A stretch of 64,000 nt of DNA from Mustelus asterias (Eukaryota): positions 186,001-250,000 of the forward strand of contig NW_027590369.1 in NCBI RefSeq assembly GCF_964213995.1, in the 5' to 3' direction. Made by a program: the position numbers and the translations under genes. Each line of letters starts with the position of its first letter. Position 1 is the stretch's first letter. The notes under the pieces were generated by a model that was not told the origin of the DNA, did not search any database, and was given only the letters and a program-made list of their open reading frames with translations. Positions 2,351-49,918 of the stretch are shown here, piece by piece.

Positions 2351-2447
2351 CAGGTACAGCAACAGCAGCGAGAACTGGATAGTAGATTTTTTGTATATTC
2401 CGAATAGAAAAAAGTATTCTTGCCACTGATTGATGATCTCTTTCCAT
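2351..2447 (-). CDS. Exon 1 of a GPR139/GPR142-like orphan class A GPCR (locus 1); exon 2 not in readable window
   Basis: Translates MERDHQSVARILFSIRNIQKIYYPVLAAVAVP, then G|gtgagt (phase-1 donor at 2350); 97 nt = 32 codons + 1; in-frame upstream stop; same YYxxxxxxxxP-G|gt layout as exons at 15760 and 41853. Confidence 0.85.
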
Positions 2448-2546
2448 TATTGTAGTCTCTTTCGCAATCTCTGTTCATCGGGTTAGTCCAGTTCATGTAT
2501 GAACGTTCTCGTTGACTCTATGGAACATCACAGTGAGCTGATTCCT

Positions 2547-2556
2547 TTAATATACG
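2547..2556 (-). promoter_or_regulatory. Candidate TATA box for GPCR locus 1
   Basis: gtatattaaa on minus strand about 100 nt upstream of the ATG at 2447. Confidence 0.35.
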
Positions 2557-4104
2557 TTGTGAGATGTCTCTGCAGACACATCTTGACTCCATGGATACAC
2601 TGATTAATTACAGCCACTGAGCAAACAGGCGGTGTTAACTCATTCTTCAAAAATGACTGCTGAATTAGAGATCAAAATTGCACGCAAATTAAATAGGCAT
2701 GAATAAAGTTAACAGATCTCTGAATATTATCGACAAATATCTCAGCAAGCATAAATAAAATGTTAAGAGTGGTGTGACGTACAGACCATATATTTTCGTA
2801 CAATTTCACGAAGACACGGTTCTTCACGCCAGAGTCAGAAAATACATTTTTATGTCCTAAAAATCAAAATAAATGAAAAGTTTGGGACAGTTCGTACTGA
2901 GAGCGACACCTGAGTAAGATTCATCGTTCTGTTCTGCACACGCAGAAACGTCACACTGCACTAATAGAATGAATGTCAATATATTATTCGCATGACAAGT
3001 GAAAGAGTGGTACAGATGTCACTGACATTGCAGCCCTGGATTCACATGTTCGTTCTTCACATGTATGTCCTCGCATTAACTGCATGGAAGAATCATGGAG
3101 TGTTTATATAATAATGGGTCGTGTCACCGAATGGAAATGTTGTTACAGAGACTCAAAGTTGGTGGTTGGTTCAAAGCATTGGAACAAAGCTGGAACAAAG
3201 CATTCATGGATGGAGACACATAGAGAATCTTTGCTTTCAGAAACAACACACAAGCCATAAATGTCATCTTTTCCATTAACCAGGGCACGGGTTAGGGGCA
3301 AGCTACTGCCTGGTAATTGGATGTTGCCATTTAGATGCATAGAAGGGAAATTATTTTCCGGGATGATATATTTAAAGGAGTTACTTTCAGTATGAATGAA
3401 AAATAAATTACCTGTGCAGAACACCGCAAACATGCAGTCATTGAGCAGGGAGTAAATAGTCCCCATAAAGGGAAGGTACGTTTGGTGGCAACGTTACTAA
3501 AACCAGGAACTGTTGTTTGTTGCTTGCTGGTTTTGTGGTTCTTTGCAGATAGTTATTCAAGGATCAGTCAGATGACTGCGTCTCTGAGCACTTCCCGGCA
3601 GCACAATGCTGATGAAGTGATTCTCGTGAAAACACGGACTACAAATTTCTTCAAGCATTCGGAACTAAATATAATGAAACGTTCCAAGCGAGATCCAGCC
3701 AGGAGAAGACACAATCCATCCCTGGCCTTCACAGTGGCAGCTGCAATATCTAAGTGACACGATTGCCTTTCAGAAATGCAAATACTTCAGTGAATATGCA
3801 TCAGAGAAGAATGCACATTTAACATTATTCACTGGTTCAAACAACTGACGAGTCAAATGTTGGAGTCGGGGTCAGTTTCTTATTCAAACCCACATTCTGA
3901 CTGGAGAGCCTAATTAATATTCCCACAAGGGAAAGTTGCAAATTTACTTCATTTCTGGCAGGCAAAATACAATATTTTTCCATGCAGTGATAGAGAAGGA
4001 GAATCGCTGAGTAGAAAAAAAGGACATTTTTCAAAGCGATGTTCTCAGAACTCAAAGTTCCATCCTTTGTTCGAGTAAAAAGATGCAAACAAATATTTAA
4101 ACGG

Positions 4105-4760
4105 CGGATGCAGTGGCATACCAGTGTTGCCACTAGAATAGCCATCCAGAGACCCAGGCTATCTTGAAAGAAATCTTAGAAACCCTACAGCACAGAAAGA
4201 GGCCATTCGGCCCATCGAGTCTGCACCGACCACAATCCCACCCAGACCCTACCCCCATATCCCTACATATTTTACCCACTAATCCCTCTAACCTACGAAT
4301 CCCAGGACACTGAGGGCAATTTTAGCATGGCCAATCAACCTAACCCGCACATCTTTGGACTGTGGGAGGAAACCGGAGAAACCGGAGCAAACTCACGCAG
4401 ACGCCAGGAGAATGTGCAAACTCCACGCAGACAGTAATCCAAGCCGCGAATCGAACCAAGGTCCCCGGAGCTGAGGAGCAGCAGTGCTACCCACTGTGCT
4501 ACCGTGCCGCCCTGGGAGGCTCTGGGACAGTAATGCTCTGGGAACCGTTCTTCCAATCCCACCATGGTAAATGATGACATTTGAATTAAATAATAATCTG
4601 GAATTAAAAATCAAATTAGGACCATGAAAGCAATGTGTTTCAACAGTACCCTTTCGGTAAGTAAGGAAACATGCTGTCCTTACCAAGTCTACAGCAATGT
4701 TGTTGACCTTTAAATGTTGCCATGGACGCCAACATTCCATGAAGGAATAAAGTAGAATAA
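4105..4760 (+). mobile_element. tRNA-derived SINE (second family) split by an HE1-type SINE insertion
   Basis: cagtggc...ccagagacccagg / taatgctctgggaaccgttcttccaatcccaccatgg...gaccatgaaa...ggaataaa; matches the uninterrupted copy at 59505-59845. Confidence 0.6.
4177..4512 (-). mobile_element. HE1-type tRNA-derived SINE
   Basis: Minus strand GGGCGGCACGGTAGCACAGTGG (A box)...GGTTCGATTC (B box), TGTGCGGGTTAGGTTGATTGGCCATGCTAAATTGCCC core, CR1-like tail. Confidence 0.9.
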
Positions 4761-7184
4761 TGAAGAAAAAAGTAGCATCTGGCGAATTTAGTAAATCTAG
4801 TTTGTATCTGCCTATATGAATGGTTTCAGTAATCAAGAAAAATACACGCCCACAACTCTGAATTAGTGCAGCATTTGTGCCATGGGGAAGTCTTCAGATC
4901 GTCGTTTGTCCAAATTTTCCTTACAAACTACTTATCTATTTACAATGTGTGTTTTCTGAAAAGTTGCATATAACACACACCGTTCCGTGTTTCCAATTGT
5001 TTGCTACATCACCAGTGAACAAAGGCAAAAGAAAGAAATCCGGCACGGGGGTGATTCAAAGTTGCTTCAATTTACCTCCGAACTCGTTTTTCCACATGTT
5101 GGGACTTGTACCACTAGAATGACCTTTATTAAATAGTTCTCACCCTTTTTGGTGCCTGGAATGGACTGATTCTGGTATAGATCAAATTGTGGAACAACAG
5201 CAATCTCTGAGTGCTTTGTTGTGCAGTTGTTTTTATCTCATTGTGTGTCTCAATATGTGTCCAAATTAATCATGCCCCAGTAAAGTTAAAAATGGCAAAG
5301 GTTACGCCAACACGAACAATGGGCAAAAGAGACCCATCACCTGCAGCAAGTGTTATGCCTGTTGATTTTACTAATTGTTGTAATTATACATTGGTTTATC
5401 ACGTTGAAAACGTGTTAAAATAATACCACTGAAAAAAATAAAAATATTTTACTGGCCTCGTAATTAAAATTAAAGTAAACATTCAGAACAAAGGAACATT
5501 GAAGCTGAAGCAAGGAATTCGGCAGTCGAGATTTAGATCCCACTCAGGGAGGTCGTGGCAGATCATGCAGTACATCTTCGACGTTTCCCCACTCATTCCA
5601 TATTCAGAGATGTCCATTTGATTTAGATTTCTAACCTTTTTATGATTTGAATAGGACGTTTGAATGACGCACCACTATCTCAGCGAAAAAGAAACATTGT
5701 CTGTACCACATTCTTAAATGGCCTGACCCTTATTCTGAGACTCTGACAGATTATTTTGGACTCATGAACAAGGGGACGCTCTGTATGCATCCAGCATACA
5801 TAGCAAAAATGTACTAAGTTTCAATAGGATCACTTCACATTGTTTAGGAATCGAAAGAGTGTTGTCCGATTTTCCTGGACCAGAGCACGAAACGGTTACA
5901 GAAGATTTCGTATTCGTGACGGGTCTACAGGTGTAAGATCCGTTTTTCACAGAAGCTGTACCCCCCGCTCCCACCTCCCCTCCCCCCCCCCAACCCCCAC
6001 CACCATGTTTACTTGTAAGACCCATGATTGGTTCAATGTAGCTTGCTTTTCCAGTTAATACTGTGGACATGACACCCATGTAATGAACTGCATTCTTCAT
6101 CAGGAATAATAGCACCCAGCGAACATGAAATATGAATCACGAAACCACACACAAAACGCACCTTTGTTACACGGGGTTTCCGAAATAAATTGTAAAATAA
6201 ATGTTCAGCGGGTTTGTGGGTTTAAGATTAATTTTCGTTCCGTGTAAGTACTACAAATTATTATTTTGAATCTGGTGGATACAATTATCCTTTGATGGTG
6301 AGGAGTGTTTCAGAAAAAAATCATTATTTCTTTGAAATTAAGAATGTCATCAAGCTTATTACTATCTGTAATGAGAACCTGAAAGACTGGGGAAAGAACA
6401 GCATCTGCGGCAACATCTGTGAGAAGAGATACATGGTTAAAAGTTTCGAGATAATTTTCCTCTTCTTTAAAGCTGAGGAGAGGGGGGACTGCGATCGGTT
6501 GCATGCAGTTGAACAATGTTGCGTTTTCTGGAGGTCCACGCTGATATGTTGCATACTCTTGAAATGTGATGTGCTGTATGCAACTGAAATGTGATGTGTT
6601 GAATGCAGGTGGATTGTGATGGGTTGTATGCGTTTAAATTTTGATATTAGATCAAAAAAGGTTGAGTACTTGATTCGACTGCACCCCACGTTCACCTGAG
6701 CTGAACTTTCAGATCTGAATCTCGCAATGAAAATATTTGCCTCGCGAGATCACTTGAAATGTTCACTGGGTGAATATTTTCACTGTACTCCATTGATGCT
6801 GCCCGGATACAGCGTAAAGTAAAACACAGAAACAACAATATGCCTGTTGTGACAACGACAGTACTCATCAATAAGTCTAAGCGTGCGGTTTGTGGAGCAC
6901 CAGATGCCGTATCGAGTGAGTGGAGACTCGCCCAATGAGGAACAGCCAGCCGGGGATTTTTAGCCTGTAGCTGTGCCCAGATCGGATTTGTAGGTCACGA
7001 GTTGAGGATTACATGGCTGTAAACTGTGGGAGCGGTCTTTTCCTTTGGGGCACAATAAAAGGTGTTGGGGACGGCATTTGGCTGAAGTATTACATTGGTG
7101 TCGAGGAGAAAACAATGCATTTTCCTCCAGCATTCCTTGCAGACAAACTCTAAACATCAAGAATTTATCTGGTCAGAAAAAATA

Positions 7185-10100
7185 ATTATGCATCTTTTCG
7201 GGAAACTTGAACCCTATCACACCATTGGGGGAAGACTGGGTCCAATACACTGCATGCATTATTTCGTCCGTGCTAACAACATTGAAGGAGACAAGAAAAA
7301 AAAACTTGACATTGCTAACAGCATGCCGGGCCCCGACTTTCAGTTTAGTAATACGCCGAATCTCTCCTGATGCCCCAAATCAAAAAAAATAATGAACTCG
7401 TCGGCCTGATGAAAATCCACGACAACCTGAACTCCCCTTCAATATTCCAGAGATATTGCTTCAATATTGCTTGGGGATCCCCTGTGGAATCTGCCACTGA
7501 GTTCTTGGCCAGGTGGCAGAAACTTGTTGAACACTGCGGAATTGGATCATCTCTGAATGAAATGTTGTGGGACAGATTTGCATTTGACATAAAAGACCTA
7601 ACCACTCAAAGGTCGCTCTTGGCAGAATCCAATGTGGACTTTATAAAGTCCATTGAGGTAGCCTTGTCAATTGAACATGCCACACAAGGGGATCAGTAGT
7701 TACAAGGGGCATCAGCCAGCTATATCTTTGAGCCGGGGGTAGGCATCACATGCAAACAGTACTCAATGCAGAGCACTTGTGTCAATCAGGGATGAAAAAT
7801 ACCCATTCATTATCGGAATCTAAAGGCATCACTAGGTCGTCAATGCCAGCACGAAGAGTATTAAAGAACATGCTCCAAAGCGTTGCACTTGATAGCTGAA
7901 TCACTGCTGCAAGCGTTGTCGAAGTGCAAAACCACGGTGATGTTTCAGAAATGGGAAATAAAAATGTGCTGCCTAAGAAGAAAGCCAAAGCTATTCTCTG
8001 TATTTAACTTACAGGTATCCCCTTTTACAGAGACAGGGACACTACAACTAAATCGTATTATAACAACTGGGAATGGTTGAGTTACGTAAATGGTCATCTC
8101 TTGAAGATGAAGGTGGATACTGGCGTCGCAGTCTCCATTATCAGAGAACAGACCTGTAAGCACTTCCATTCGGGGATCCAATGCCTGAGTTTGGAAGTTT
8201 TGAAGGACCAGCTAAACACCTACACGCGGGAAGATTTACAAATAAAAGGCACCACAGTGGCCGCAGTGACATCTAGACAGCAATCAGATCGGCTGCCATT
8301 CATTGGTGTCCGGGGGAATGGACAAAGCCTGCCTGAGGTACAATTGGGTCCTGCAGATTACAGTTGTCTAACCTGCTGAAGATCTGCAGGCGAGGCATGT
8401 GGGGACTGTACGATGATATCAGGAGATACCCTGGAGCTTTTCAGGAGGGCCTGGGGAAAATAGAAAGAGTCAGGGCCAAGATCTACGTTGACACTAATTC
8501 TCCACCTGGGGTATTTCAGATCTAAACCAATCCCAAAATCCAGGCGAGAGAACGTGGAAACTGAACGAACGCGCCTTGAAGTCTTGGGTACAATAAGACC
8601 TGTGCAAATTACAGAATGGGCTTTGCCCATCCTACTGCTCTTCAGTTCGTCTTAATTAAATAACTGTCAATCGGGTATCCAAACTCGTTCTTGTACTCCA
8701 TGCCCAAGATTGAAGAATTGTACGCCACGTTAACGGGTGGCAAGCTGTCCTGCAATTTGGACATGAACCACGCCTATCCTCAACTTGAATTGGACGAGTT
8801 ACCCTGAAATATCTGTGACTTTCAACACACAAAAAGGACTGAACGAATATACCCGTTTACCCTTCGGGATCTCAACAGTATGTGCGTGGGTCCCATCAGC
8901 GTGTGTCATCTTCCGAAGGATACTAGTGAACACCCTTCATGGGCGAGACAAAGCAGCAGTTTCCTTAGATGATTTTTAGGTCACGGGGGAATTAGAAGAG
9001 GAACAACTGCCGAACCTAGAAGAAGTATTGCAGGATATCCAGAGCGGGAGTACGCTCGATGGGGAAGAAATGCGTTTTCCAAACAGCTGAAGTAACCTAT
9101 TTAGGCAGCCAAGTAGATGGAAGGTGGTTACATCCAGTGGAGGATAAATTAAAAGCCATCAAGGAAACATCAACCCAACTAACAGCACGGAATTCAATAC
9201 TTTTTGGAGTAAGTAAATTATTACAGAAAATGTATCCTGAATTTGGCTTCGATGCTGCCAACTTGCATACCTTATTCCGAATATATCACAGATGGTCCTT
9301 GGAATCTCCGCAGGCAGTGGCTTCATCTATAGTTAAACGCCAGTTACTGTCATTAACATACGGGCCCTTTTTGACCCGAAAAGTTTGATTCTAATTTATC
9401 TTGTCACCTCTCCCCATACAGAGTTGGTGCAGGGATGTCAATTGCTGAAAAGACAGATGGAGTCGCCCATCGTGTGTGGCTCCTGGACCTGTTGGATGCA
9501 GAATGATGATATCCTCAAATTGGGAAGGAAAAGCTGGTGGTCGTTTTTGGTACGAACAAGTGCCACCAATGCGTCTTAGGTGAATATTTTATAGTCATCG
9601 AACATAACGCCTTACTGGACCTCTTCTAATTGTACCGCACCGCACCGTACACAACAACATGTGTGGCTCCAACGTCGCTATTAATGGAATGTCGGTTCGT
9701 GAAAGTATGGACTTCCAATTCACAAACGTGGTGGATAGAATATTGTCCCAGAAGGAGAATTGAAAAAGAAACTTTGATTCGAAAAGGTCCAAAATAACTT
9801 ACGCAACGGTTGACCTGATTCATTTAAGGAACTTTCAGCAGGGCCCCGCATGTATCCCTGCAATCGTTTGGGTGAAAAAACGATCAGTATCCTAAAAGGC
9901 CAAAGTTCAGAATACCAACCGGAAGAAGCACAGAGGCCACCTCATGGTCAGGTTCTCCATGCGCGAGGCATCCCACCACTGGCCATGGAGATAGGCCTTG
10001 CCAATGACTGTCCACAGCTTAAAGGTTACTCCGAGTTCCCACTCTGGATAGTAATGGCATGGACTCTGAAATGAGCGCTGAAGAAGTGGGCCTCCAGGCT

Positions 10101-10300
10101 GAAGTGGAACCTGAGCAGGATGTTACCGAGACCTCAAGGACCCCAGCAGATCATCAGTATATATTTCTGTGCGCTTCCTAGAGTCGGAGCTTCCTTATTG
10201 AGAGAACTGAGGCTCGCAAAGTGGGGTGCATCCAGCGGGTTTTTGAAACATGTACCTTTACCAGGAGCAGGCTTGTAGATGCCGAGGTGAGAGCTGTCTG
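7185..10300 (+). mobile_element. Degenerate Ty3/Gypsy (Mag/K02A2.6-like) gag-pol remnant
   Basis: Gag LFGKLEPY...EDWVQY...LNEMLWDRF...QRSLLAE; aspartic protease VNGHLLKMKVDTGVAVSII (8077-8379); RT FNTQKGLNEYTRLPFGIS...SLDDF (8785-8979); RNase H remnant; many stops and frameshifts; right boundary approximate. Confidence 0.85.
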
Positions 10301-10399
10301 ACTATAAGCTGCAGGAGGAACAATTAACTTTGATACACAAAAAAAATGTTGGTGACGCTGAACTCGCGTTTGGCTGAATTACGACAGTAGCATTCCAAT

Positions 10400-15439: not shown

Positions 15440-15760
15440 GATTGGAACAGTAGTTTGAAACATTACAATAATTGATCTGTATCTGAGAGCAATAATTTAG
15501 AACGGCTCAGCAATGGATGAGAATCTGAGAACAATCGATTGGAATGATAGAACAATTGATGAGAATCTGGGAACAATCGTTTGGAATGATACAGCAATGG
15601 ATCAGGGTCTCAGAACAATAGATTCGAATGTTACAACGTTGGAAAGGGATTTGTTAGAGTAGCTTCAGCTGACACTGCTGGTTGAATGGGCGGATCGAGT
15701 ACGCACTTTATGTTATTCAATACCTTTATTATTCTATGCTCACACTGATTGGTATTCCTG
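15440..15760 (+). pseudogene. Exon 1 of a GPR139/142-like GPCR pseudogene (locus 2) with a 7-aa repeat N-terminus
   Basis: ATG at 15513 gives MDENLRT-IDWNDRT-IDENLGT-IVWNDTA-MDQGLRT-IDSNVTT-LERDLLE* (TAG 15660); a shifted frame gives GRIEYALYVIQYLYYSMLTLIGIP, then G|gtgagt at 15760/15761. Confidence 0.8.
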
Positions 15761-15789
15761 GTGAGTTTCTCTGTCCAGTTTTGAAAGGC

Positions 15790-17476: not shown

Positions 17477-19728
17477 CAGTGGTCCCCAAAGGGTGCGGCG
17501 GGCCACATTGGTGCGGCGATGGCAAGTGTGGTGGGAAGATTCAAGGACAATCAAAGAAACATTTAAACATCGACAGATATTTTTGCAAAGTGAGAGCAAA
17601 AGCATCAATGAATCTGAGGACGATCCGTGTCCACGTTGTGATCCAGAATCGCCGTTCGAACAGAGTGCTGAAGAAGAGTCGTTTAATTCTACACCAGTAG
17701 CAGGCCCAAGCAAACCTCCAAAAAAGAATGTTTGTCGACAATATATGGATAGCTATATGAGTCTCGGTTTCACATGGACTGGAGATGGAAACGTACCTCG
17801 GCCTTTGTGTTTGATCTGTGGTGAGAAGCTTTCCCAAGCAAGATGAAAAGACATCTGTTGTCAAAACATGGAAATCTGGCAAGCAAGATGTTCAATATTT
17901 TGAAAGGCTTTTGGAGCAGCAGAAATGCCAACGATCAAATTTCGAAAAACGAATGACAGTCTCAGATAAGATGCAGATTATATCTTACCAAGTGGCTGAA
18001 TTGATTGCTCAACAGACAAAACCACATACACGAGCTGAAAAATTGATTCAGCCAACCTGCAGCTTGATTGTGAAAACTTTGTTTGGTTTTGATGCTGAGC
18101 GAGAAGTTATGGAAATTCATTTGTCTGGCGATACAATTCGCAGAGGAATAGTTGATAGGTCAACTAATGTTGAGAAGCATGTTTCCGAAAGTATGAAGAA
18201 TTCTAAATTTGCCATTCAAGTTGATAAATCGACCGACATTAGTGGAAAAGCACAGTTGCTTGCCGATATCAGATTCATTCACAATGACGAAATAGTCACA
18301 CAGTTTCTATTTTGCAAGGAACTTGAAAAACATACCAGAGGACAAGATATTTTCCAAACCTTGCCTGAGTGTTTGGAAAAAGTTGAGATTTCATGGGAAT
18401 CTTAAATTGGAATTTGTACGGATGGAGCGCCATGTATGAAAGGGAATGTGAGAGACTTGGGGGCACTCATCAAACAGAAAAATCCAGATGTAATATCAAC
18501 TCACTGTTTTTTCTACAGAGAGGCATTAATCACCTTGTAGCTGATTTGAAGTTGGTTCGAGATCAGACTGTGCGCATTGTGAACTTCATCAAAGCAAAAC
18601 CACTAAAGGCGCGGTTATTTGCTCAACTCTGCAAAGACATGGAATAAAAACATCAATGCCTAATTCTGCACTCGGAGGTTCGCTGGATGTCCCCCGGAAA
18701 TGTTTTAAATCGGGTGTTGGAACTGAAGAACGAATTAAGAGAGTATTTGGAACAAGAAGAGAACCCATTGTACCACCAAGTGGATGACAATGACTGGTGT
18801 GCAAATCTGGCATCTTTGGCCGATATCTTTTCCCGGTTGAATGTGCTCAGTGCCAGTATGCAAGGCCGCGATGACAATATCCTCACAACTACAGACAAAC
18901 TAACTGCATTCAAAAAAAAGCTTCAGCTCTGGCTCAGAAGAGCGGTGCGACATAACCTCGAAATGTTCCCACTGGTAAAAAGTTTTAAAACGAGCAATGA
19001 ATTGTACGGCCTCATACAGGAGCATCTTGCAACACTGGTAGAAAAGATTGATCATTACTTCCCATCATTGTCGACAGAAAAATTCGACTGGGTTAAAGAC
19101 CCCTTTGCGAATTTCAACTGTTCCGGTCTGACATTGGATGAGGAGGAGGAAATGACCTGTATTTCGAATGATCGCACCTTGAAAATGAAACACAGGAGTA
19201 TGCCACTGGACTCTTTTCGGACATACAACCAGAAACAGTATCCACTCATCTCTTCAAGAGCATTAGCTATTATTCTGCATTTCTCCACGACATATTGTTG
19301 TGAACAGGGATTTTCAGCTCTGACAAATATCAAAGACCAGTAAAGAGAAAGGCTTCTTTGTGTTGATGAAGAGATGAGAGTTTGTTTGTCTCAAATTAGA
19401 CCATATATATATGAGATAACCTGACAAAAACAAGCTCACACCTCTCATTGAGTTTGCATGCTTACTTAAGGTTACATATGTAAGAGGCTCGCCTATAAGT
19501 ATATTTTGGGAATGAATCATGTTTTTATGTAGCTGCATTGTTTTATACATTCTGGATGTCCCATGATCATATTATAAAGTAGTTATGTTCTATGTTATGA
19601 ATCAAGCACTGCGAGGAGTTTTTTTTTTGTTTCTGAATGTTTTTCTTATCAATAAAAAATTTGCTGTTGCGCGAGGAAATTTTTATTCCAAACGTGCGGC
19701 CCAGTGAAAAAATGTTTGGGAACCACTG
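17477..19728 (+). mobile_element. Full-length hAT DNA transposon (Buster/Charlie group), inactivated
   Basis: TIRs CAGTGGTCCCCAAA (17477) and TTTGGGAACCACTG (ends 19728), 13/14 match; 8-bp flanks gtctatat / gcttacat both with central TA; encloses a transposase pseudogene. Confidence 0.92.
17570..19450 (+). pseudogene. hAT transposase pseudogene (ZBED5/SCAND3/FAM200-like)
   Basis: BED-finger region RQYMDSYMSLGF...PLCLICGEKLS; FAIQVDKSTDIS; GICTDGAP; THCF; EVRW; FSTTYCCEQGFS; C-terminal KKQAHTSH*; split over ORFs 17493-17846, 17818-18405 and 18687-19343. Confidence 0.9.
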
Positions 19729-19988: not shown

Positions 19989-20262
19989 CTCGAATTAAGA
20001 ACAATTGGAAACTTCCACTTTGCAGAGGCGGAAAAAAGCAGCACGTGGACAGAGCAAATGACAACAATTTTAGCATCGCTGAAAATTGCATATGGAGCAA
20101 GTAGCTTGATGGATAGACATACCAGGTACCCCAACAATAGCAAGGATGGAATAGTACACGTACTGAATAATGAAAAGTGCATATTCTAACCGATGTTTTA
20201 ATAATAACCCATCGTAATATGTAGAAGCATACCAAAGGTAAGACGATAAACTCTTGCCGTTT

Positions 20263-23137
20263 GAACAAACAAAGAACAAAGAACAAAACAGCACAGAAAA
20301 CAGGCCCTTCTGCCCTCCAAGAGTGTGCCACTCCGTTGTCCAATCAGACCAATCGTTTGTATCCCTCCATTCCCAGGTAAGTCTTAAACGATGTCGACGT
20401 GCCTGCCTCCACCACCCGACGAGACAGCGCATTCCAGGCCCCCACCACTCTCTGTGTAAAAAACATCCCTCTAATATCTGAGTTATACTTCGCCCCTCTC
20501 ACCTTGAGCCCGTGACCCCTCGTGCTCGTCACTTGTGATCTGGGAAAAATCTTCCCACCGTTCACCCTATGTATCCCCTTCATAATCTTGTACACCTCTA
20601 TTAGATCTCCACTCATTCTCCGTCTTTCCAGGGAGAACAAGCCCAGTTTACCCAATCTCTCCCCATAGCTAAGACCCTCCATAGCAGGCAACATCCTGGT
20701 AAACCTTCTGTGCACTCTCTCTAACGCCTCCACGTCCTTCTGGTCGTGTGGCGACCAGAACTGGACGCAGTACTCCAAATGTGGCCTAACCAGCGTTCTA
20801 AATAGCTGCATCATCAGACGTCTATACTCTATACCCCGTCCTACAAAGGCAAGCATACCATATGCCTTCTTCACCACCTTCTCCACCCGTGTTGCCACCT
20901 TCAAGGATTTGTGGACTTGCACACCTAGGTCCCTCTGTGTTTCTATACTCTTGATGACACTGCCATTTATTGTAAAACTCCTCCTTGCATTATTTCTTCC
21001 AAAATGCATCACCTCGCATTCATCCAGATTAAATTCTGTCTGCCACCTCTCCGCCCAATTTTCCAGCCTATTTCTATCCTGCTGTATTGCCCGACAATGC
21101 TCATCGCTATCCGCAAGTCCAGCCATCTTCGTGTCATCCGCAAACTTGCTGATAACACCAGTTACACCTTCTTCCAAATAATTTATATATATCACAAATA
21201 GCAGAGGTCCCAGTACAGAGCCCGGCGGAACACCACTGGTCACAGACCTCCAGCCGGAAAAAGACCGTTCGGACGCTACCCTCTGTCTCCGATGGCCAAG
21301 CCAGTTCTCCACCCATCGAGCCACTTCTCCTTGTATCCCATGAGCCTTAACCTTCTAAACCAATCTGCCATGTGTGACTTTGTCAAATGCCTTCCTGAAA
21401 TCCATATAGACGACATCCATGGCCCTTCCTTCCTGAGCCGTTTTTGTCACTTCTTCAAAAAACTCCACCAAATTTGTAAGGTACGACCTCCCTCTTACAA
21501 AGCCATGCGGTCTGTCACTAATCAGATTGTTCCGTTCTAAATGCACATACATCCTGTCTCTAAGAATCCTCTCCAACATCTTCCCTACCACGGACGTCAA
21601 GCTCTAATTTCCCGGGTTATCCCTGCTACCCTTCTTAAACAACGAAACCACATTCGCTATCCTCCAATCCTCAGGGACCTCACCTGTGTCCAAAGAAGCG
21701 ACAAGGTTTTCCGTCAGAGGCCCAGCAATTACATCTCTCAGCTCCCTGAGCAGTCGAAGATAGATGCCATCAGGCCCTGGGGCTTTGTCAGTTTTAATGT
21801 CCCCTAAAAAACCTAACACTTCCTTCCTTTTAATGGAGATTTTCTCTAACCGGTCAACACCTCGCTCTGAGTCACTCCCGGTTAACACGTCCCTCTCCTT
21901 CGTGAATACCGATGCAAAGTATTCATTTAGGATCTCCCCTATGCCCTTGGGTTCTAAGCATAATTCCCCTCCTTTGTCGCTGAGAGGTCCGATTTTCTCC
22001 CTGACAACTCTTTTGTTCCTAATGTATGAATAGAATGCCTTAGGATTCTCCTTAATCCTGCCTGCGAAGAACATCTCGTGACCTCTTTTTGCCCTTCTAA
22101 CTCCCCGTTTGAGTTCTTTCCTACTCTCTCTGTATTCCTCCAGAGCTCCATCTGTTTTCTGTTGCCTGGAATTAACGTATGCCTCCCTTTTCATTTTAAT
22201 CAGATCCTCAATTTCCCTGGTTATCCATTGCTCTCGAATCCTACCTTTTCTTTCTTTCCTTTTTGCAGGCACATGCCTATCCTGCAGCCTTATCAATTGT
22301 TCCTTAAAAGGCTACCACATGCCAGACGCGGACTTACCCTCGAACATCCTATCCCAATGAACGTCCACCAATTCCTGCCTAATCCGGCTATAGTTAGCCT
22401 TCCGCCAATTTGGCACCCTGCCCGTAGGACAGCACGCATCCTTGTCCATTACTATCCTAAAGTTAACAGAGGTTGTGGTCACTATTGGCCACAGGTTCCC
22501 CTACCGAAACTTTGACGACCTGACCGGGCTCATTTCCCAGAACTAGGTCCAGTATAACCCCCTCTCTAGTCGGGCTATCTACATAATGTTCCAAAGAACC
22601 TTCCAGTATGCATTTTACAAATTCCTCCCCGTCCGGAACCCCAGCTCTAAGCACTTTCCAGTCTATACCAGGGAAAGTAAAGTCCCCCACTACAACAACT
22701 CTATATTTTCTGCACCTATCCAGAATATCCTAACATATCTTTTGCTCCACTTCCCGTGGGCTGTTGGGTGGTCTGTAGTACACCCCCAGCATAGTGACTG
22801 CACCCTTCCTGTTTCTGAGTTCCACCCACAGTGACTCAGTACATGACCCCTCTAAGTTGTCTACCCTCTGCACCGCGGTAATATGGTCCCTAACTAATAT
22901 CGCTACTCCCCCACCTTTTTTAGCCCCTCCTCTGTCTCGCCTAAAACACTTATACCCCGGAATATTCAGCTGCCAGTCCTGTCCCTCTTTTAACCAAGTC
23001 TTCATCACCGCAACCACATCCAAATTCCACATAAGTATTAAGGCCCTAAGTTCATCGGTCTTAACCGTTACCCTCCTCGCATTGAAGCAGACGCATTGAC
23101 ACAGACTCCAGACCTACAGGCCCACTCAGGTCATCCT
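20263..23137 (-). mobile_element. 5'-truncated CR1 (HER1-like) LINE: ORF2 endonuclease + reverse transcriptase, disrupted
   Basis: ORFs 22730-23032 (LDVVAV..TWL..GVYYRPP), 21604-22296 (KAPGPDGI), 21355-21600 (YMDFRKAFD), 20344-21324 (GVPPGSVLGPLLF..FADD..RPHLEYCVQFWSP); (gaacaaa)n tail. Confidence 0.95.
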
Positions 23138-23621
23138 TGTTGGGACATTCCAATCATGTGTTCTCACATTCTGATCCATTGCTGTAACATTGCAGTCGTG
23201 CGTTGTCAGTTTCTGGTACGTTGTTGAACGATTACAATCCATTATTTTCAGATTATGATCTCCCTTCTCCCTCTATCTGGAGCACTTGGTCCTTGTTAGT
23301 ACCTGAGCTGGTCGATCTGCGGACACGATGGGAGAATTCATTGAAATGAATCCCTTATTAATAAAAGAAGGAAAGCTTCCAGTGGCACCGTTAAGTGCCA
23401 TGGGTAATGCCATTAATTACAGTCACAAAACAAACAGATTCAGTTAATCTGTGACAATCCGAAGCTTTTTTACCCGGTATAGATGTGTTGAGTGAGGGTC
23501 GGTGATGGAAGTAATTGGGAATAGGGGAGGCCATGCCCCGAAACTGATCCAGTTAATTAATGCAGTAATGGAGAACGTCACAGTCATACGTATGGTTATT
23601 GAAAACGCGTATGAAAATGTT

Positions 23622-32502: not shown

Positions 32503-32529
32503 TGTGTGTGTGTGTGTGTGTGTGTGTGT
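32503..32529. repeat. (TG)n microsatellite
   Basis: Direct inspection. Confidence 0.95.
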
Positions 32530-35600: not shown

Positions 35601-36505
35601 TCAGTCACGTGCAGCAGTAGTTTTAGTAATTAGATTTTTCCCACATCGCAGCGTCCTTCTCAGCTCTGTCCTGAATTTGGATTGGGTTAGAGCGTACATA
35701 CACGTGCTGGTACAACAGTTCAGTGTACTGAGCATGTCAGCGCTTTCATGAATCACAGCAACAGGGTGGTTGAAGTCGGGGAAACTGTAGCTTTCAGTGA
35801 GCCGTGAGAAAAGGAAGAGGCCGATTGTCGGCATTCACAACAAGATGAAACTCGCCGAGGCAGCAAAGAGCAACACCAGGGCTTTCCTCCGATTCTGCAT
35901 CTCGGGGTCCGCAGAACTCTGACCATCTCCCCGGAATCCCCGCCGGACACGACTGGCCACCAGGACGTGCCTGACTGTCAACAGGTTGAGCAGCACCACA
36001 GCCAAGTAAGGAACTAAGGGATTTAAAATAATGTTCATCCAGTCAAATGCTCTCCAGGCCTGCTTAGATTCAATGCTGAGACCGTCTCTATGTTCGTTTT
36101 GCAGGTTTTTATGATCATAGTAATGTATATTTGTGAAATAATTTGGGATGCTTCTCAAATATGTCGCAAGATAAATCACCACAACCACCAGAGCTGCAGA
36201 TTTCGGAGTCCAGTAAGTTCCTCTGAACTTCTGGCAGCAGATTGCCACGTAACGGTCAAAAGTGAAGGACACGGTTAGCCATACTGAGCAGTCAATCACA
36301 GCGGCACTCATGATGGAGTTGAGGCCGTAGGCTACGCTGTTAAGGTAAAACACCTGTGGGAAATGGGGAACCAGTATATGGTTTACCAGAACAAGAAATG
36401 AGAGGACCAGGACGTCTGCCGTGACCATGGCGACCAGGTAGATAGTAGTGCTCTTGCACAGACCGCAATCCCTGAGTTGGAGTGTTAGCATCGTGATTAA
36501 GTTGG
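35601..36505 (-). pseudogene. Exon 2 of GPR139/142-like GPCR (locus 3); full length except one in-frame TGA at 35835-35837
   Basis: Acceptor ttctttatttcag|CC AAC; ANLITM..CGLCKSTTIYLVAMVTADVLV (TM1-2), DCSVWLTVSFTFDRYVAICC (TM3), PLVPY..LLNLLTVRHVL (TM5), DPEMQNRRK..FILL* (TM6), LNCCTSTCMYALTQSKFR (TM7); ORFs 35835-36539 and 35601-35834 are in the same frame. Confidence 0.92.
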
Positions 36506-37760: not shown

Positions 37761-37767
37761 GTGTATT

Positions 37768-38020: not shown

Positions 38021-38114
38021 GTAAGACTGAGTTAGATCGACTTTTCATCAAAAAGGGAATCAAAGATAATCGGTAAAAGGTAGGAAAATGGACCTGTGGA
38101 ATCGGATCAGCCAC

Positions 38115-39916: not shown

Positions 39917-40136
39917 CATGATGCGGAGATTTCGGCGTTGGACTGGGGTAAGCACAGTATGAACTCTCACAACACCAGGTTGAAGTGCAATCGGTTTATT
40001 TGGTGGCACAAGCTTTCGGAGTCTCGCTCCTCCTTCAGCTTCACTCACCTGAAGAAGGAGCGAGACCCCGAAAGCTTGTGCAAACAAATAAACCTGTTGG
40101 ACTTTAACCTGGTGTTGTGAGACTTCTTAGTGTGCT
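39917..40136. mobile_element. Palindromic non-autonomous Penelope-derived element with two mutated hammerhead motifs
   Basis: Inverted arms (ctcacaacaccaggtt...aacctggtgttgtgag); plus strand CTGAAGA-A-GGAG-CGAGA-CCCC-GAAAGCTT at 40049; minus strand CTGAAGG-A-GGAG-CGAGA-CTCC-GAAAGCTT. Confidence 0.82.
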
Positions 40137-41852: not shown

Positions 41853-41922
41853 CGGGTATACATAAAGCCGCGAGGATATAGTAAAAAACATATCGAATCC
41901 TTAGAATTATTGCTTCCTCCAT
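41853..41922 (-). CDS. Exon 1 of GPR139/142-like GPCR locus 3 (joins exon 2 at 36505 across a 5.3-kb intron)
   Basis: MEEAIILRIRYVFYYILAALCIP, then G|gtaagc; 70 nt, phase 1; G+CC=Ala joins in frame to exon 2; spliced length 975 nt = 325 codons including the terminal stop; gtataag about 75 nt upstream. Confidence 0.88.
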
Positions 41923-43519
41923 TTGATGTCCCTCCTGTGTGTGTTTGCTCACTGGCAGAACACGAAATCATTTTCTCAAAATACGTCCCGTTACTTATAC
42001 ACTATTAATAATTCCAGAGGGATAAATAGTTGTGTAATTCGCTACATCAATTACAGTACATTAAACAAACATCATTTTTTCAGCATTTTTACATGGCAGC
42101 CAATACGGCTTATTTGAGGAACATCAAACCCAGGACATGAAGGCTTCAGTCACTTGGAGACCACGGGTTACTATCATTATATTTCACTTTCAAAAGCTCA
42201 TTTAACAATTGCATAGTATATATTTTCCCAGGATATAACATTGAGAACCTCCACTGATATGTCCATTCAAAAAATCATGACAAAAATGATAGTGTGTATT
42301 CATGAATCACACAAGGATTTGAGTTTCTGTTTCCACAAAGTTTTCTGCACTGTATTGATTCTTTGATTCTATGATTTATACCTCAAACTATTCAATCCCT
42401 GCCAACAATCCATGTGTATCCTTTTTCTACCGTCAAAATGTGTTCTTGTGCTTGTTTAATTTATAAAGAGCGTACCCAACGTCCTCTCTGTGTCTGCTTC
42501 ATCTCCCTTCATAAGATCGCACCCACAGCAACAGCCAAGTCACTCGATTGCGACCTTGAAAGTTTCAGTGAAAAATGGGAAATCTATTACCGGTGCTTAA
42601 ATTACGATCATATTCAGATTCTCAGAATCTGCATGAAATTTGCTTTACTCTAGCACATTTACTTTATTTAACAGTGCGTACTTTAGTGGCGATGGCATTG
42701 TCTGAAGTTTGGAACAAATCTGTGCGAGTTTTGGCTAAAATAAAAACACAATTTAGACGAAGCAGCGAGTTTAGGACCTGAAGTAGTTGAATACATTGTC
42801 AAATGCACAAGGCTGCAAAGTATTTAACCGGACCCGAATCAATATTACTCAAGTTTGTGTTTTGCTTCACAATGGCATTTGAGCAGCCCAAGGATTGAAA
42901 TGTGGACATGTGTGAGAAATATGTGTGCTGACGTGGCTAAAGAAATGCAAGGTGAGGCCGTGCTTGTGGAATAAAAGTAGATTTTAAGTAAATTTGTCAC
43001 CCAGCCTTCACAGATTTATTTTGTTTTGTTCTGCTTTGCCTTCTGCACCCCTCTCCTACTATAGAATCCAAGCATTTTCTACTCTTTTTCATCTCCGAAG
43101 AAGAGTCAATCTCACGAAGTTAACTGACTTTCTCTGTCTCCACAGAAGGTGACCGAATTTTTGAATCGTTACACCATGTTCTGTTTCCTTTGAGAAACCA
43201 GTAACTCCACTCAATTACCTCTTATTCTTTTAGAATGTGGAAAATCACGCATTTTCTGAATATTTGGAGCTGATGTGGAGTTCATTTTAATGGTCAGAAG
43301 TTCAGTATGAAAATTTCAACAAGTATGATTCTCTCAGGGAAAAGGAGTTGGGGACATGAGGGTGGGGGCGGGGAGCGGGGGCGGGTAGCGAGGTAATATC
43401 TCTGAAAGATTATGAAAAGGTCTCAGGCAATGATTGACAAAATGATGACTTGAGGTAGCGAAAAAGAGAAAGAAAACACGCCTGGGAAAGTTTGTTTTAA
43501 TTCAAGATTTTGAGCGAAT

Positions 43520-43795
43520 GGGCGGCACAGTAGCATAGTGGTTAGCACTGCTGCCTCACAGCGCCAGGGACCCGGGTTCGATTTCCTGCTTGAGTTACTG
43601 TCTGTGCGGAGTCTGCTCGTTCTCCCCGTATCTGCGTGGGTTTCGTCTGGGTGCTCCGGTTTCCTCCCACGTTCTGGAAGATGTGCTGGTTAGGTGAATT
43701 GTCCAGAACAGGTGCCAGACTGTGGCGTCTCCAGAAATGTCACAGTAACTTAATCGAAATGTTAGTGTAAGACTTGTGACAAATAAATAAACCTT
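43520..43795 (+). mobile_element. HE1-related SINE
   Basis: gggcggcacagtagcatagtggttagcactgctgcctcacagcgccagggacccgggttcgatt. Confidence 0.88.
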
Positions 43796-45187
43796 TAACT
43801 TCATGATTGTGGCAGACATTGGAAATGATTGCGGAAAGTTCTTGGAGGAGGGCGGAAATGTGGGTTAGTGTCATTCAATGGCACGTTTAGCTGAACATTT
43901 TTGCAAATGATTCAGCCTTTCCTTCAGCACCAATGTGCTGATTTCCCCCATTGGTGGGCATAGGGATATTTGTGGATCCTCCTCCAGCGTGTCGAGCAGC
44001 AATCCCGATTTGATGTGCCAGATTTGCAGAGCTAAGATAACATGCGTCAGTTGTCGAATTGCACAGTTAAGTCTCACAAGTGCAGTATATCAATTTGGCA
44101 TGCAAGTGGTCTTGTTGTTTACTATCACATACTTGGCATTTAATTTATAATTGTGCCCGCTGAGGCTCCTGGGATACCTTCTTGGGCCTGAAACCTGTCC
44201 ACAGATTGATGTGAATAATAGAAGACTACATTGAGAGAATCTGCAAAATTCTTTACTATATTCCCTTCTTCCGGTATTTCATGAGCTCTTCAAATGTTGT
44301 TCAGTTGATTTTTTGTTTTAGCCTTGGCACCCTCTGGAAACTCGATTATTTTGCGGTCAGTGCATATTATGTTGGAAAACGCATGGATTGCATTAGTGGA
44401 TTGAGATTTATGATCGTGAGGAAATTCAGGAAAACTAATTGGGCCACGCAAGAAATGTTTTTGGGCGAATGGCTTAGAATTGATATTGCTAACTCAACCC
44501 ATACTGAAGAGCAAAAATATTTATGTGCTAGGCTAAATAACATTAATTCCTGTCATTGAAAATTAGCATTATTACACTTGCAAATTAAAATTAGTTACTA
44601 ATACACAAGCTGAACACTGGAATGACCTGCAATCAGTTACGGATACACTGTTCTCATTCTGTATGCCCGCTGACACAATGCAAGTCTCGGAAGGATTGTT
44701 CATCCGATAGTGAGCTGTGGGAGACTGTGTTGAGTGACAATGTGAGTGAGTCAGTTTTGCAGATATCTAGCTCTATTTATTGGGGACGTGAGTTCAGGTA
44801 CACCACGGTGTCTCGTTTACGTTCATCAAACAAGAATGTCTAGCTTGCCTCAGTAATGGTGGCAGCCTTAATGTTGCTTCAAAATGACATCTCGTTCACT
44901 GGTGCTTTTAAATGAGTGCCGCATGTTCGCATCATCGCATATTAAGTATTTGTGACTCCAGACAGCGAGATTTGTTTCCGCTGAACACTCCACCGAAATG
45001 ACCTGGTGAGCCACTCAGTTGTGCAGGAATCACGGTGGGAAACAAATGCTGATATTAGAAGTGACATCCACGTTCATTAAGGATTAAATAAATAAATGTA
45101 AATAATCGCTAGACTGAACTGTTCCTCAAATTTAACATTGAATTTGCATTGATTAATTGAATATACAATGACCTATGTGGAGTATGT

Positions 45188-45496
45188 GGCGGCACAGTGG
45201 TCTCACAGCAGCAGGACTTGGAATCGATTTCCGGCTTCTGTCACTGTCTGTGTGGAGTTCACACATTCTCCCGGTGTTTGCATGGGTTTTCTCCTGGTGC
45301 TCCGGTTTCCTCCCACACTCCAAAGATGTGCGGGTTATGTGGATTGTCGATGCTGAATTGCCCCTTCGGATCAGGGGGATTAGCTAGGGCAAATGCATGG
45401 TGTTATGGTGATAGAGCCTGGGTCGTCTTGCGGTAAGTGCAGACATGATGGGCCGAATGGCCTCCTTCTGTACTGCAGTGATTCTAAGATTCTATG
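45188..45496 (+). mobile_element. HE1-type SINE
   Basis: ggcggcacagtgg...gtggagttcacacattctc...gggccgaatggcctccttctgtactg...ttctaagattctatg. Confidence 0.82.
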
Positions 45497-46689
45497 AAAC
45501 CGGGCCACCACTGGGAAATCCGTGCAGACTCAGGAAGAATGTGCAAACTGCGCATCGACAGGCGCCCATGGACGAATATGGACCAGGGTCACAATCGTAT
45601 TTAAATTGTTAGATTCAGCTGAAAGTTCCTCTTGGAATTTATTTAAAAAAAATTCATTTTTTTAGCTTTTCCTTTGTCAACAGCAATTTTACAGTGACAA
45701 TAAAAACGCTGATAATTCATGTGCTAAATTCAAAATTATTAATCACAAGAACTGGACAACAACACTAACGCGTTATAATACAAAATATTTACAAGTCAAC
45801 AAATGCACTTTCCAAATTTAAATTGCAAGTTTCAAATGAACATATACATTTAGCAGATTTAAATCACAAAATATACACCAACGACTGAATATGATCATTG
45901 CAAACACAGTTTGCAAGGTAAGTTGATCAGGGTCCCGAAGCATGCCAGGAATGGTGTGAAATGGAAGGGAATTCATCAATAAATTTCAAATTATGTCCAT
46001 GGTCAGATCTAATCTGATCGTTCCACAAAATTCGGTTCCATTATCATTTCTGGCCCTGAGGAATGGAAAACCGATCAGCCTGACAATGAGATACAGACAC
46101 AGAGTTGGAATGTAATCAGGGGCGAACAGCATCCTACAATACAGAGTATTTACTTTCAGACAACTTGTTCTCCCCAGAGGCAGCCCCATCTCCAGCTCAT
46201 TTATTTCAAGTGATGCAGATGTTAATGTCTATGGCTGTTGAGTGGTTGAAACAGAATAGGTTCAGCGAGCACCAGTCGCTGCACAATTAAGCCACACTCA
46301 GTGCTGCTTGAAACTGCTTACTATACAATGTTTATCCAGGAATGCTATGATAACCCCGGATTTCCCTCTGTACGACAGTTTTCTGAAAAGACAGCGTGCC
46401 GCCCAGGAACACCACGCCTGCCCCCCATTACTCCCAAACAGTCTGAGGATATTTCATACTCTTTATCTTCGTCTCTGAAGCAGATAGAATAATTTAACAG
46501 TTGGATTTGCTGCTTTCCTTCCTTGCCAATACATTCGCCCTATTGCTCCGAACATCTATACATATCTTTCTCCACGTTCATGTCAAAGGATTTGAAGTCT
46601 TGTTCAGCCATGAAGCATACTTTGCAGTTTATTCTTTTATTAACCAACATTATTTTAGAAAAAAATTCATAACTATGTACATATTCAGA

Positions 46690-47600
46690 GCTCAATTTCA
46701 AGGTTGAATACGACTCCATCCGAAGCATTTACCAGTCTGTGTCCATATCTAGGTTTCGATGAGGATATTGTGATTCAGCAACGGGATATAGATAGATCGA
46801 GTGATGAGCGAAATTCTGGCAAACGGAGTTTAATGTGGGGAGGGATAATGTCATGTATATTGGCATATTGGCAGGGGGAATCAAAAGGCAGAGTGGGATC
46901 AAAATGGAGAGGGGCTGCAGGTGAGTGAAGTGCAAAGGTGTCTTGGCAATCGAGTGCATGAATTACAAAAATGAACTAGCAGTCAGTTCCAAAAAGTATT
47001 TAAGAATGCAAGCTAAGATGTATTTAGGCCTTCATTGGAAAATGGTTGAAGATTCAACAAAGGGTGATATTGTTGAAATTGTACAGGGTGCTGATGAGAC
47101 CTCATCTGGAATACTGCATACAGCTTTGGTCCGCGTACACTAAAAATGATAGTCATATTGGAAGCAGTCTAATGAAATTAACTATGCTATTCCCTGGGAT
47201 AAGACTGTTCCCTTTCAAGAGCGAATTAATAGTGTGCCTGTATTCCATGGAGATTGGAAGAGTGAAGGGTGACATTATTCAATCACATAACATTCTGAGG
47301 GTGATTGACAGAGTAGATGGTGCGATACCGTCAATGATGGGAGACCTCGAACAAGGGGATATGACGACAGGTAAATGTTGGTCATTTAAAACCGAGTAAC
47401 ATAAACATTTCTTCTCGCAGAGTTTGGCGAATTTCTGGAATTCTCTGCCCCAACATATAGTGGAGACCGGATCATTCACAGTATTTAAGGTGGAACTGGG
47501 CAAACATTTGATAGATCGGTGAACAGAGGGAGATGGGGAAATGATAAAGGTAAGATATTGACCATCCTTAATTACATTAAATGACGGGTCAGGCATGAAA
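46690..47600 (+). mobile_element. Decayed CR1 ORF2 3' region
   Basis: LYRVLMRPHLEYCIQLWSAY...GRVKGDIIQSHNILRVIDRVD (ORF 47046-47399). Confidence 0.8.
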
Positions 47601-49029
47601 CACTTGAGCGGGTGGTGATAAAGCTGCTTATTTAGGTTCAGCAGTCGATGTTTTGTAATCACCTCTGCACTGTTGCAGAAGCAGTTTCAAAATCCTGACT
47701 GCGCAACATTGAAGTAATTATGTTATAATTCGATCAAGATGTTAAGGGAAGAGCCATTTGTTTTGCCTGTCTCCCGATTCATCTCTCGTCCCTCTCTATC
47801 TAGCAATTGGAGATCATTACTTTACAACCTACTGTGGAAGTGCCTTGGATGCTTAAGTCTGTGAATCGAATGTGCGCCAGTGGGCATTTCCTCTCCATCT
47901 TTCAGCTTATACCATAAGCCTTCAAGGCAATCCAAGCCACTGCTGAGAGCTCGCAGAGGCGTGCTCGCCTCACTGCATAACACTATGCTTCAAACTCTGT
48001 TGTGGTAGTTTGAAAAATATCAAGCTCTGAGCCCATGTAATCCCCAAATCCGGAACAAAAAAACTCAAATACAGGATATTTTAGATAATGGTGATGTTTT
48101 ACACAAGCGAATCTGGATTGCCAGTTATATTGTCCTGAGCGAGTTGATATCTGTCCGTGCCTTTGTGTTTGTGTGTTGTTGTTTGTGATGCAGAGTTTGT
48201 GTAATAGATGAGATATTACATTCTCCCACCGATCATTCCAAGGACCAGTCAAATGTGGTGTTAGATAAAGCGTACCTTCACTCTGCACTCTTGTTTCAAA
48301 CGTCAGGTAGGGAGTAAAACTCACTCAGTTTGGTTGCATCGAAAAGTAAACAGGGCCAGTACAACATGGGGTTACAAAGAGCATAAACGTTGTATTTGTT
48401 AACGTTTGAACCCTCCCAGAATGTGTAAACCACTGTTAGAAAGAGCGTAGAAGTCCTTGGAATAGAAGACCTAACTGTTCAGATAACAGTATATTCGACT
48501 CTTGGCAGTGCCAAGGGAACTTGGAAATGTGGCAGTTGAAAGTATAGAGGCACTAATGTTGATTATATTTGGAATGTGGTGCTAATTAAAATGAAATTAT
48601 GTCAACACAATTGAGGAGAAATAGCCTCTCAAAATGTTAGATAACACGAGGAAGAGGACGGACCCTGGAGCAGTCTATTATGAAAGATCAAGCTGGCGTG
48701 AAATCGAATGCAATGGGAACCATGGAATAATATTCATAGAATCTGCAGCGGTATGGATTTTGGAAGAAATGGTGTTGATTTCAGAGATCATGCGAAGATC
48801 TGTGAGTCGAGAAACTGGAGGTATTTTTATTCCCTTATTATCCAGCAAGCGGGGTCAATTCCATATTACTGTCTTGGCCCACAAGAGCACACATTATTCA
48901 GGAAGTTATCGTCAACTCCTATATATTTCTGGTGTAATAACAAAGATGGATATCAATAATTTACATTAATCTTTCGAGTGATAATGATGGGACCAGCTTT
49001 CACACGGTGGTATTTCTTTTCTCCGACAT

Positions 49030-49918
49030 TATTAATGACTCATTTAATTAAACGAATCGGATATTACCCGCCCCCCCCCCTCCCCATCCTTAATCTGCTC
49101 TCTGCACTTGGACTGAGTCACCCCATAAGTGAAGGCATTTGTGCAGCAAAGTAAGTTGGCCAACATATACGGGAAGCTTTGAAAGATATGCTCAGAAGCA
49201 TGACGCTTCACCATATTTTTCCAGTAACATTATAATCTAAGAACTCAATAACCAATCGCGACTTATTGGATGAAGTTGCCTGATATGGCGCAGTGTAATG
49301 TTGCAGCAGGCGTATGCTATCTATCTCTGGGTCACTGTATTGTTCTACCTTGCATTGACCTCTTAGGCATTTACAGAGTCGAATGTGCCTAAAATGGGTC
49401 TCACTGTCAGAGCATTAAGCAATACAATCAATGAAAATCCAACAGCCGTGTTGCAATTCTCTCAAATCAGCCAAATACCACCCAGACTGGCTGAGAAGCA
49501 TAGACTGGTTTCACAGCAAAGAACGACGGTAAATTATCAATTATTTATCTGGGTTCAACTGCAAATTAGAAGGAGGCATTTTTCAAACAGAGCAGAATGC
49601 ATGTTTTGGCTATAATCACAGCCACAGTTTCCTAAGTGCATTATTTTGAATTCGCATTCTGTCAATATAGCTTCAAATCGATCGAAGAAAAAACGACAGT
49701 CAATCGGAGGAAGTACTCGGTGGCTGCAGAAAAATGGCATTACAATATGAGTGCGATGTTCAGATAGGGTCTAGCAAAATTATAATTATTTATCCAATAC
49801 AATATGATAGCCGTGATGATGAATAATAGTTCAGCAGCAGACATGGCCAGGATGTAGGGGCTGGTGCAACTGGAGAGCACACTTTTCTGAGACAGGTTTC
49901 CATTTACCATTAAATTAA
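49030..49918 (-). pseudogene. Heavily decayed exon 2 of a GPR139/142-like GPCR (locus 4)
   Basis: Acceptor ctttcactgacag|TT AAT TTA; across frames: NLMV..LSSCTSPYILAMSAAELLFII, FFDRFEAI, TCILLCLKN, IIDNLP, LNALTVRPIL, YSDPEIDS, ISGNFI, LLCCTNAFTYGVTQSKCREQI; multiple stops and frameshifts. Confidence 0.85.

Follow-up and report, generated by a model that had tools for sequence, protein, structure and literature searches.

An ordinary, largely dead piece of a receptor family with over 2,200 loci in Mustelus asterias

The 64,000 nucleotides of Mustelus asterias DNA considered here, called the window throughout (contig NW_027590369.1, positions 186,001 to 250,000, forward strand), carry exons of class A G protein-coupled receptors (GPCRs) that a preliminary description, made from the letters alone, had read as a local birth-and-death cluster of four loci resembling GPR139 and GPR142. 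Second exons were sought with a nucleotide hidden Markov model (HMM) built from intact relatives (nhmmer, E<=20) and with a six-frame hmmsearch, while an exon-1 HMM was run over 264 kb. Four first exons lie in the window, at 2351(-), 15760(+), 20123(-) and 41853(-) (E of 3e-13, 4e-5, 8e-10 and 0.019 respectively on the 264 kb), and all of them end, as had been described, in P-G directly before gt, in phase 1. There are only two second exons, at 36505-35601(-) with 794 bits and at 49918-49044(-) with 302 bits (nhmmer), neither nhmmer at E<=20 nor the six-frame hmmsearch finding a third in the window, so that the picture of four loci each with both exons gives way to five units with a single two-exon locus. 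The features are as follows (TM, transmembrane helix; LINE, long interspersed nuclear element).

2351..2447, minus strand: exon 1 'A', 32 codons plus 1 nt, GT donor, open
15513..15760, plus strand: exon 1 'B', long repeat-type N-terminus, one stop and one frameshift, without an exon 2 of its own
17477..19728, plus strand: decayed DNA transposon, presumably of hAT type, 14-nt terminal inverted repeats, weak DUF4371 match below cut-off
20123..20262, minus strand: exon 1 'C', 3' part, GT donor, without an exon 2 of its own
20263..23137, minus strand: LINE insertion of 2.9 kb with an RVT_1 match, dividing exon C in two
23138..23242, minus strand: exon 1 'C', 5' part, ATG and repeat-type N-terminus
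35601..36505, minus strand: exon 2 of locus 3, from the end of TM1 to the C-terminus
41853..41922, minus strand: exon 1 'D' of locus 3, 23 codons plus 1 nt, open; intron 5.3 kb
41990..42075, minus strand: promoter module predicted for locus 3, with TGTTTGTT at -149 and, some 22 nt 5' of a TATA at -78 from the ATG, TCCC-NN-TGGA
49044..49918, minus strand: exon 2 'E', heavily decayed, many stops and frameshifts, about 67% nucleotide identity to the nearest intact sampled members

Locus 3 (41922-35601) is the only unit with both exons inside the window, exon D and its second exon together making 324 codons. It holds the sole long receptor frame (36593-35838, minus strand), whose 7tm_1 match, PF00001 at 48.7 bits for a cut-off of 30.5, is the only one among 24,736 Pfam models. 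A single in-frame TGA at 35837-35835 stands in place of W6.48, a residue invariant in 74/74 intact members of the family. An assembly error is an unlikely source of this stop, which is common to three of the 26 near copies matched; public contigs carry an open codon at the same place. For exon A, the nearest second exon on the same strand is intact and lies 13.8 kb to the left of the window (G000:C337:172242-171337); from order and strand the two probably form one gene with an intron of about 16 kb. Exons B and C are convergent, 4.4 kb apart, with the decayed transposon between them, and we infer that a deletion took the 3' ends of both genes. The N-terminus of B consists of three repeats of about 14 residues with N-x-T sequons, while N-glycosylation sequons occur in 0/25 short-type first exons. 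Lengthening by such repeats is seen in one subfamily (window 15513-15640; L079, L090, L115), some of them with N-glycosylation sequons. For the decayed exon E the closest first exon is at least 42 kb away.

The surplus of first exons, nine against seven second exons in the 264 kb around the window (five of the seven open), could be taken to mean that the orphan ones are alternative first exons giving variable N-termini to a shared second exon, the more so as C and A share a strand and both precede one intact exon 2. This reading is hardly credible: C is divided by a LINE, B has the opposite orientation together with a stop and a frameshift, and the two look like convergent genes that lost their 3' ends. 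The window thus contains no complete intact gene: one gene has a stop, another, probably intact, is present by half, and the other three units are relics. The gradation once seen here, from intact exon through single stop to heavy decay, persists in its two lower steps (the TGA within 36505-35601 and the decay at 49918-49044), the intact second exon being found only outside the window; the strong difference between N-termini (32 residues, 23 residues and a long repeat type) was correctly noticed.

Nor were there four local births. Exon B recurs at 26 places at an identity of at least 88%, exon C at 40/40 scored places at 86% or more, the spacing being constant, and the motif of the locus-3 subfamily occurs at 23 places, one of which is on a chromosome-scale contig. 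The block in the window is present some 23 times at 90-100% identity, its dead exons having been duplicated along with it. In the parts fetched, the copy on contig C38 is colinear with the window at 90-99%, and there locus 3 is open. The local arrangement is therefore one copy of a recently amplified block that carries old relics. Contig depth in DNA run X1 (a sequencing run, to be distinguished from the orphan lineage X1 below), perhaps the source sample, is about 150 on the locus-3 exon versus 10.8 on single-copy GPR139, an indication, if a rough one, that the copies are genuine. Public contigs from four runs of unrecorded kind include two that extend through the acceptor into the intron, and for this reason such contigs say nothing on expression. 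An older duplication, at 85-89%, is visible on the same contig (G000:C337, window-relative -37394 to -26990 versus 142453-156883), comprising a whole receptor gene some 180 kb apart.

This block belongs to something much larger. A TM3 motif has 2,277 exact matches in the genome and a TM7 motif, independent of the first, 2,297, while reversed controls give 0 for both. In one cluster the TM3 motif was also present at 23 of the 32 TM7 matches, an overlap that extrapolates, loosely, to 3,200-4,600 loci. Among the first 100 places listed, second exons picked for an exact motif match were open in 41/60, 36/40 and 14/20 cases (91/120 in all), a fraction biased upward because an exact motif favours intact genes. 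The 91 intact sequences reduce to 74 distinct ones at 97%, with a median pairwise identity of 47% among the 74. The genome therefore contains a family of more than 2,200 clustered loci, with a majority of the sampled frames open, and the idea of a large clustered family of intact and dead copies holds, the few copies that would have spoken against it not being what was found. The TM3 motif misses a young tandem array (G000:C8:10.64-11.52 Mb, L179-L218) that comprises some 50 copies, 36 of 40 sampled being open.

The family, for which the preliminary description had suggested an elasmobranch expansion, occurs in sharks and rays and also in a chimaera. Of 502 matches to a protein query 120 were listed, and 118 of these name cartilaginous fish, a chimaera included. 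Annotation gives many shark and ray species more than one paralogue, and in the tree shark and ray members pair inside subfamilies, so that the expansion must have begun before the two groups split. The wider locus-3 subfamily, first branch of the family tree, is conserved in rays at 56-59%. The database name is GPR139 for 116/120 listed relatives; these genes are, in short, already in RefSeq under a misleading name. No description of the expansion itself was found in the literature, among the top matches listed and with subscription journals largely outside the search. The word 'shark' occurs 0 times in PMC12208981, devoted to GPR139, and the names GPR139 and GPR142 gave 0 matches in the supplements of PMC11806052 (1 file) and PMC8455134 (12/24 files).

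What kind of receptor is encoded? The AlphaFold model of the intact paralogue P0425 is a seven-helix bundle (predicted local distance difference test, pLDDT, 78; TM-score 0.69 to 7VUG), and the best match of the family in the PDB is GPR139, both by sequence (E 4e-14) and by fold, the 18 PDB matches including no OR, TAAR, V1R or V2R receptor. Activation motifs are retained in the intact members, with D and R of the DRF in 74/74, W6.48 in 74/74 and Y7.53 in 99%; Pro7.50 is replaced by Thr, GPR139 likewise having no proline there. The near-invariant parts are the DRF at the end of TM3, the second inner loop, W6.48 and the inner end of TM6. A cysteine pair linking TM3 to the second extracellular loop (ECL2) is present in 63/74 members, while GPR139 and GPR142 both lack it. 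This pair, missing from the subfamily of locus 3, was lost stepwise within the locus-3 subclade (L002-L026), L028 having two cysteines, L025 one and L002 none, a parallel to GPR139 and GPR142. The ligand pocket differs. With GPR139 pocket residues as given in the part of PMC8807744 available, E3x32 is kept in 0/74 members, F3x33 in 14/74, H5x43 in 27/74, R6x51 in 4/74 and N7x38 in 2/74, and at 15/18 pocket-equivalent positions the entropy is 2.6-3.7 bits. As judged from these residues, the amino-acid pocket of GPR139 is not kept in the family.

The true GPR139 (on C23) and GPR142 (on C12, 57% identical to it) are separate single genes in this genome, the family having 24% identity to the former and 20% to the latter. 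A GPR139 query against 1.84 billion representatives, 114/150 matches being kept for coverage, uncovered two further orphan lineages: X1, of the type of coelacanth XP_005988539.1, named from coelacanth, sharks, ray-finned fishes, amphibians and reptiles (no mammal or bird is named among 120 listed relatives), and X2, of the type of bichir XP_028654722.2, from bichirs. Both are also called GPR139 in databases, and X1, whose match spans residues 10-345 within a single open frame, may be without the TM1 intron. Each is one conserved gene here (X1 at G000:C25:56716127-56720131, L176; X2 at G000:C5:28698158-28702087, L177), as against more than 2,200 loci of the family. In a tree of 47 rows the family is monophyletic (support 100/100), joins X1 and X2 (100/97), then amphioxus (95/90), and stands apart from GPR139/142; which of X1 and X2 is its sister receives 85/32. 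Forcing it onto GPR139/142 costs 20.3 log units, with p=0.051 in the approximately unbiased (AU) test, an alternative that is borderline, unfavoured and not rejected. The family thus appears, at this borderline strength, to be a clade of its own with X1 and X2 as closest relatives rather than GPR139/142. Three such orphan sets near GPR139/142 are reported in bony fishes (PMC6504862, Rinne et al. 2019), and X1 and X2 are probably among its GPR210A and GPR210B sets; in the text available of that paper 'shark' occurs 0 times and the expansion is not described.

The name GPR139/142-like was half right, since the intron position and the best PDB match agree with it, while X1 and X2 are closer in the tree and the pocket residues are lost; that the loci would be no plain orthologues stands unaltered. 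Likeness to these two class A orphans, activated by L-Trp and L-Phe (PDB 7VUG, 9M42), includes the phase-1 intron at the end of TM1, whose acceptor falls at the identical codon in GPR139, GPR142, X2 and the family (the acceptor side being the one compared). One might conclude that we are dealing with extra aromatic amino-acid sensors, all for internal ligands of the Trp/Phe kind, since GPR139 is the best structural match, the acceptor coincides in codon and phase and the AU test does not formally exclude the grouping. We hold this to be very improbable: the critical pocket residues have mostly gone (as the 0/74, 4/74 and 2/74 for E3x32, R6x51 and N7x38 illustrate), identity is low, and true single orthologues of GPR139 and GPR142 sit elsewhere in the genome.

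Upstream regions add a further element. Among 42 regions preceding first exons 33 are distinct, and 27 of these were aligned, omitting four with long N-termini and two near-duplicates. A TATA-like box is present in 21/27; across these homologous regions TCCCNNGGGA, at up to 2 mismatches and mostly 18-22 nt 5' of the TATA, occurs in 16/27 where about 2 are expected, and TGTTTGTT, at up to 1 mismatch, in 15/27 where 1.9 are expected. The module consists of TGTTTGTT, the palindrome TCCC-NN-TGGA and, some 21 nt further, the TATA, with the ATG following after about 70-100 nt. Its counts are far above those of random windows and its elements persist across distant subfamilies; the region upstream of exon A fails the strict module test. 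De novo motifs obtained by expectation maximization (EM) score 72 versus 60 and 61 for controls, a modest excess. In mammals, O/E-like and homeodomain sites mark the promoters of olfactory receptors (ORs), as stated in the available part of PMC5086798. The palindrome resembles such an O/E-like (EBF-like) site with a constant mismatch, and may be a degenerate version of it.

Selection was estimated from parsimony counts over 18 of 23 cherry pairs (dS<0.6), which are independent of each other. The ratio of nonsynonymous to synonymous rates (dN/dS) is 0.36 overall, 0.25 (0.21-0.30) for the inner and 0.52 (0.39-0.67) for the outer parts; three subfamily sets go in the same direction, inner below outer, with overall values of 0.36-0.54 across analyses and an IQ-TREE codon omega of 0.50 for one subfamily set. 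These ratios indicate purifying selection with a freer outer face. For the ligand pocket, to which the preliminary description had pointed, the 13 sites give 0.66 (confidence interval, CI, 0.38-1.08), and 0.54-0.84 in subfamily sets; no region exceeds 1. In one young array dN exceeds dS at p<0.01 for 9/285 sites, 8 of the 9 being outer, which suggests positive selection on the outer face.

It is here that the copies have to be asked whether they are anything but passengers. If block duplication in DNA rich in repeats had carried most of them along, only some dozens of old subfamilies would be functional, in ordinary endocrine or neural signalling. The block multiplied with its dead exons, the depth on locus 3 (that rough hint again) and the collapse of 91 intact sequences to 74 fit this. 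However, divergent open genes in chromosome-scale arrays evolve under purifying selection, promoter elements are retained across distant subfamilies, pocket residues vary between subfamilies and many sharks and rays have multiple annotated paralogues, and we find this explanation improbable for the family as a whole.

Divergent pockets, one signalling face, open frames under selection and one promoter type together give the family the look of a ligand-discriminating repertoire. Chances are about even, on what can be read from the genes, that it is a repertoire of sensors for outside chemicals. Each intact gene would then specify a receptor with almost no N-terminus, whose helical pocket takes a small molecule or short peptide of its own and which signals through the shared G-protein face. 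The common compact promoter would place expression in one class of sensory cells, most plausibly olfactory neurons, perhaps with a few genes per cell. Tandem and block duplication would add copies, while stops, insertions and deletions would eliminate others.

Host defence might have produced much of the same pattern. An innate immune or barrier repertoire, comparable to formyl-peptide or Mas-related receptors and borne by leukocytes, mast-like cells or endings in skin and gut, would recognize peptides of microbes or parasites; copy number, variation of the outer face and pseudogenes also fit pressure from pathogens, and peptide receptors are among the closest folds. Cells of the B lineage, too, would be compatible with an EBF-like site. 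This account is nevertheless rather unlikely: there is no sign of strong selection by pathogens, dN/dS staying below 1 in every region, and no immune gene was found among the 66 open reading frames of the window. The names GPR139 and GPR142 also occur in 0/4 supplementary files of a shark immune single-cell atlas (PMC11372145), a weak argument since gene naming in the atlas is unchecked.

To return to sensors of outside chemicals, a more specific and somewhat less probable possibility is that an orphan branch near GPR139 became the cartilaginous fishes' own olfactory family, on which sharks might chiefly rely to perceive odours. TRPC2 and Go mark the olfactory neurons of the catshark, according to the available part of PMC10116579, and a class A receptor could in principle use this machinery. 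Several observations weigh against the sensory reading as a whole. The promoter counts are not independent, because the regions are homologous; the exact O/E consensus is found in 0/33 promoters, and homeodomain hexamers, in 28/33 versus 27.3 in shuffles, are not enriched. EBF factors are also active in B cells and many neurons. No region goes beyond a dN/dS of 1; of the 285 sites in the young array Bonferroni correction leaves 2, one of them inner, two other subfamily sets have 0 sites at p<0.01, and gene conversion can inflate parsimony site counts. Near-identical block copies, 23 for locus 3, make up part of the family count. Finally, the catshark top-50 list for brain and olfactory tissue, in the part of PMC11979771 available, contains no GPCR, V2Rs being absent too.

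Comparison with known repertoires shows what is shared. As with OR, TAAR, V1R/ORA and V2R/OlfC genes, there are large clusters, birth and death, a short N-terminus, a variable pocket and a conserved signalling face, and, as in vertebrate olfactory repertoires, a compact promoter with a putative O/E-like site; by contrast, the family is on another GPCR branch (PF00001 only), has one coding intron and does not have the exact O/E consensus. Nematode Srw receptors (PF10324) expanded independently, out of the same peptide-receptor-like part of class A; an Srw cluster is the top look-alike in a language model (0.96, tied with others and a lead only), and PF10324 is given for 3 of the 120 listed relatives.

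Other features of the region deserve brief mention. A long LINE copy at 52036-56170, with endonuclease and reverse-transcriptase frames and few stops, is 91% identical to the insertion in exon C. Decayed open stretches at 7000-9400 resemble, by eye, gag/pol of a long terminal repeat (LTR) retrotransposon, with no Pfam match. Near-perfect minisatellites occupy 51161-51334 (55 bp units) and 56262-56531 (74 bp units), and a 4.3-kb repeat occurs twice at 98% identity (G000:C337, 83145 and 123109). In the intron of gene A, open stretches at 3407-3754(+), 116 codons, and 1338-1748(-), 137 codons, have no Pfam match and are probably due to chance. No tRNA or Rfam family was found in the window.

Published totals of complete olfactory receptor genes in cartilaginous fishes, in the part of PMC10869828 available, are 20-62; these animals are described as relatively poor in GPCRs in the accessible text of PMC8455134, and a small olfactory repertoire in a large shark nose is treated as a puzzle in that of PMC10116579. 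These counts do not include the present family, whose more than 2,200 loci are hidden as 'GPR139'. The window itself is an ordinary, largely dead piece of this remarkable family. Whatever tissue uses it, the family is among the largest vertebrate receptor expansions; and if the olfactory proposal were true, thousands of genes in some sharks would rival the largest mammalian OR sets and overturn the view of a nose with a few dozen receptors.

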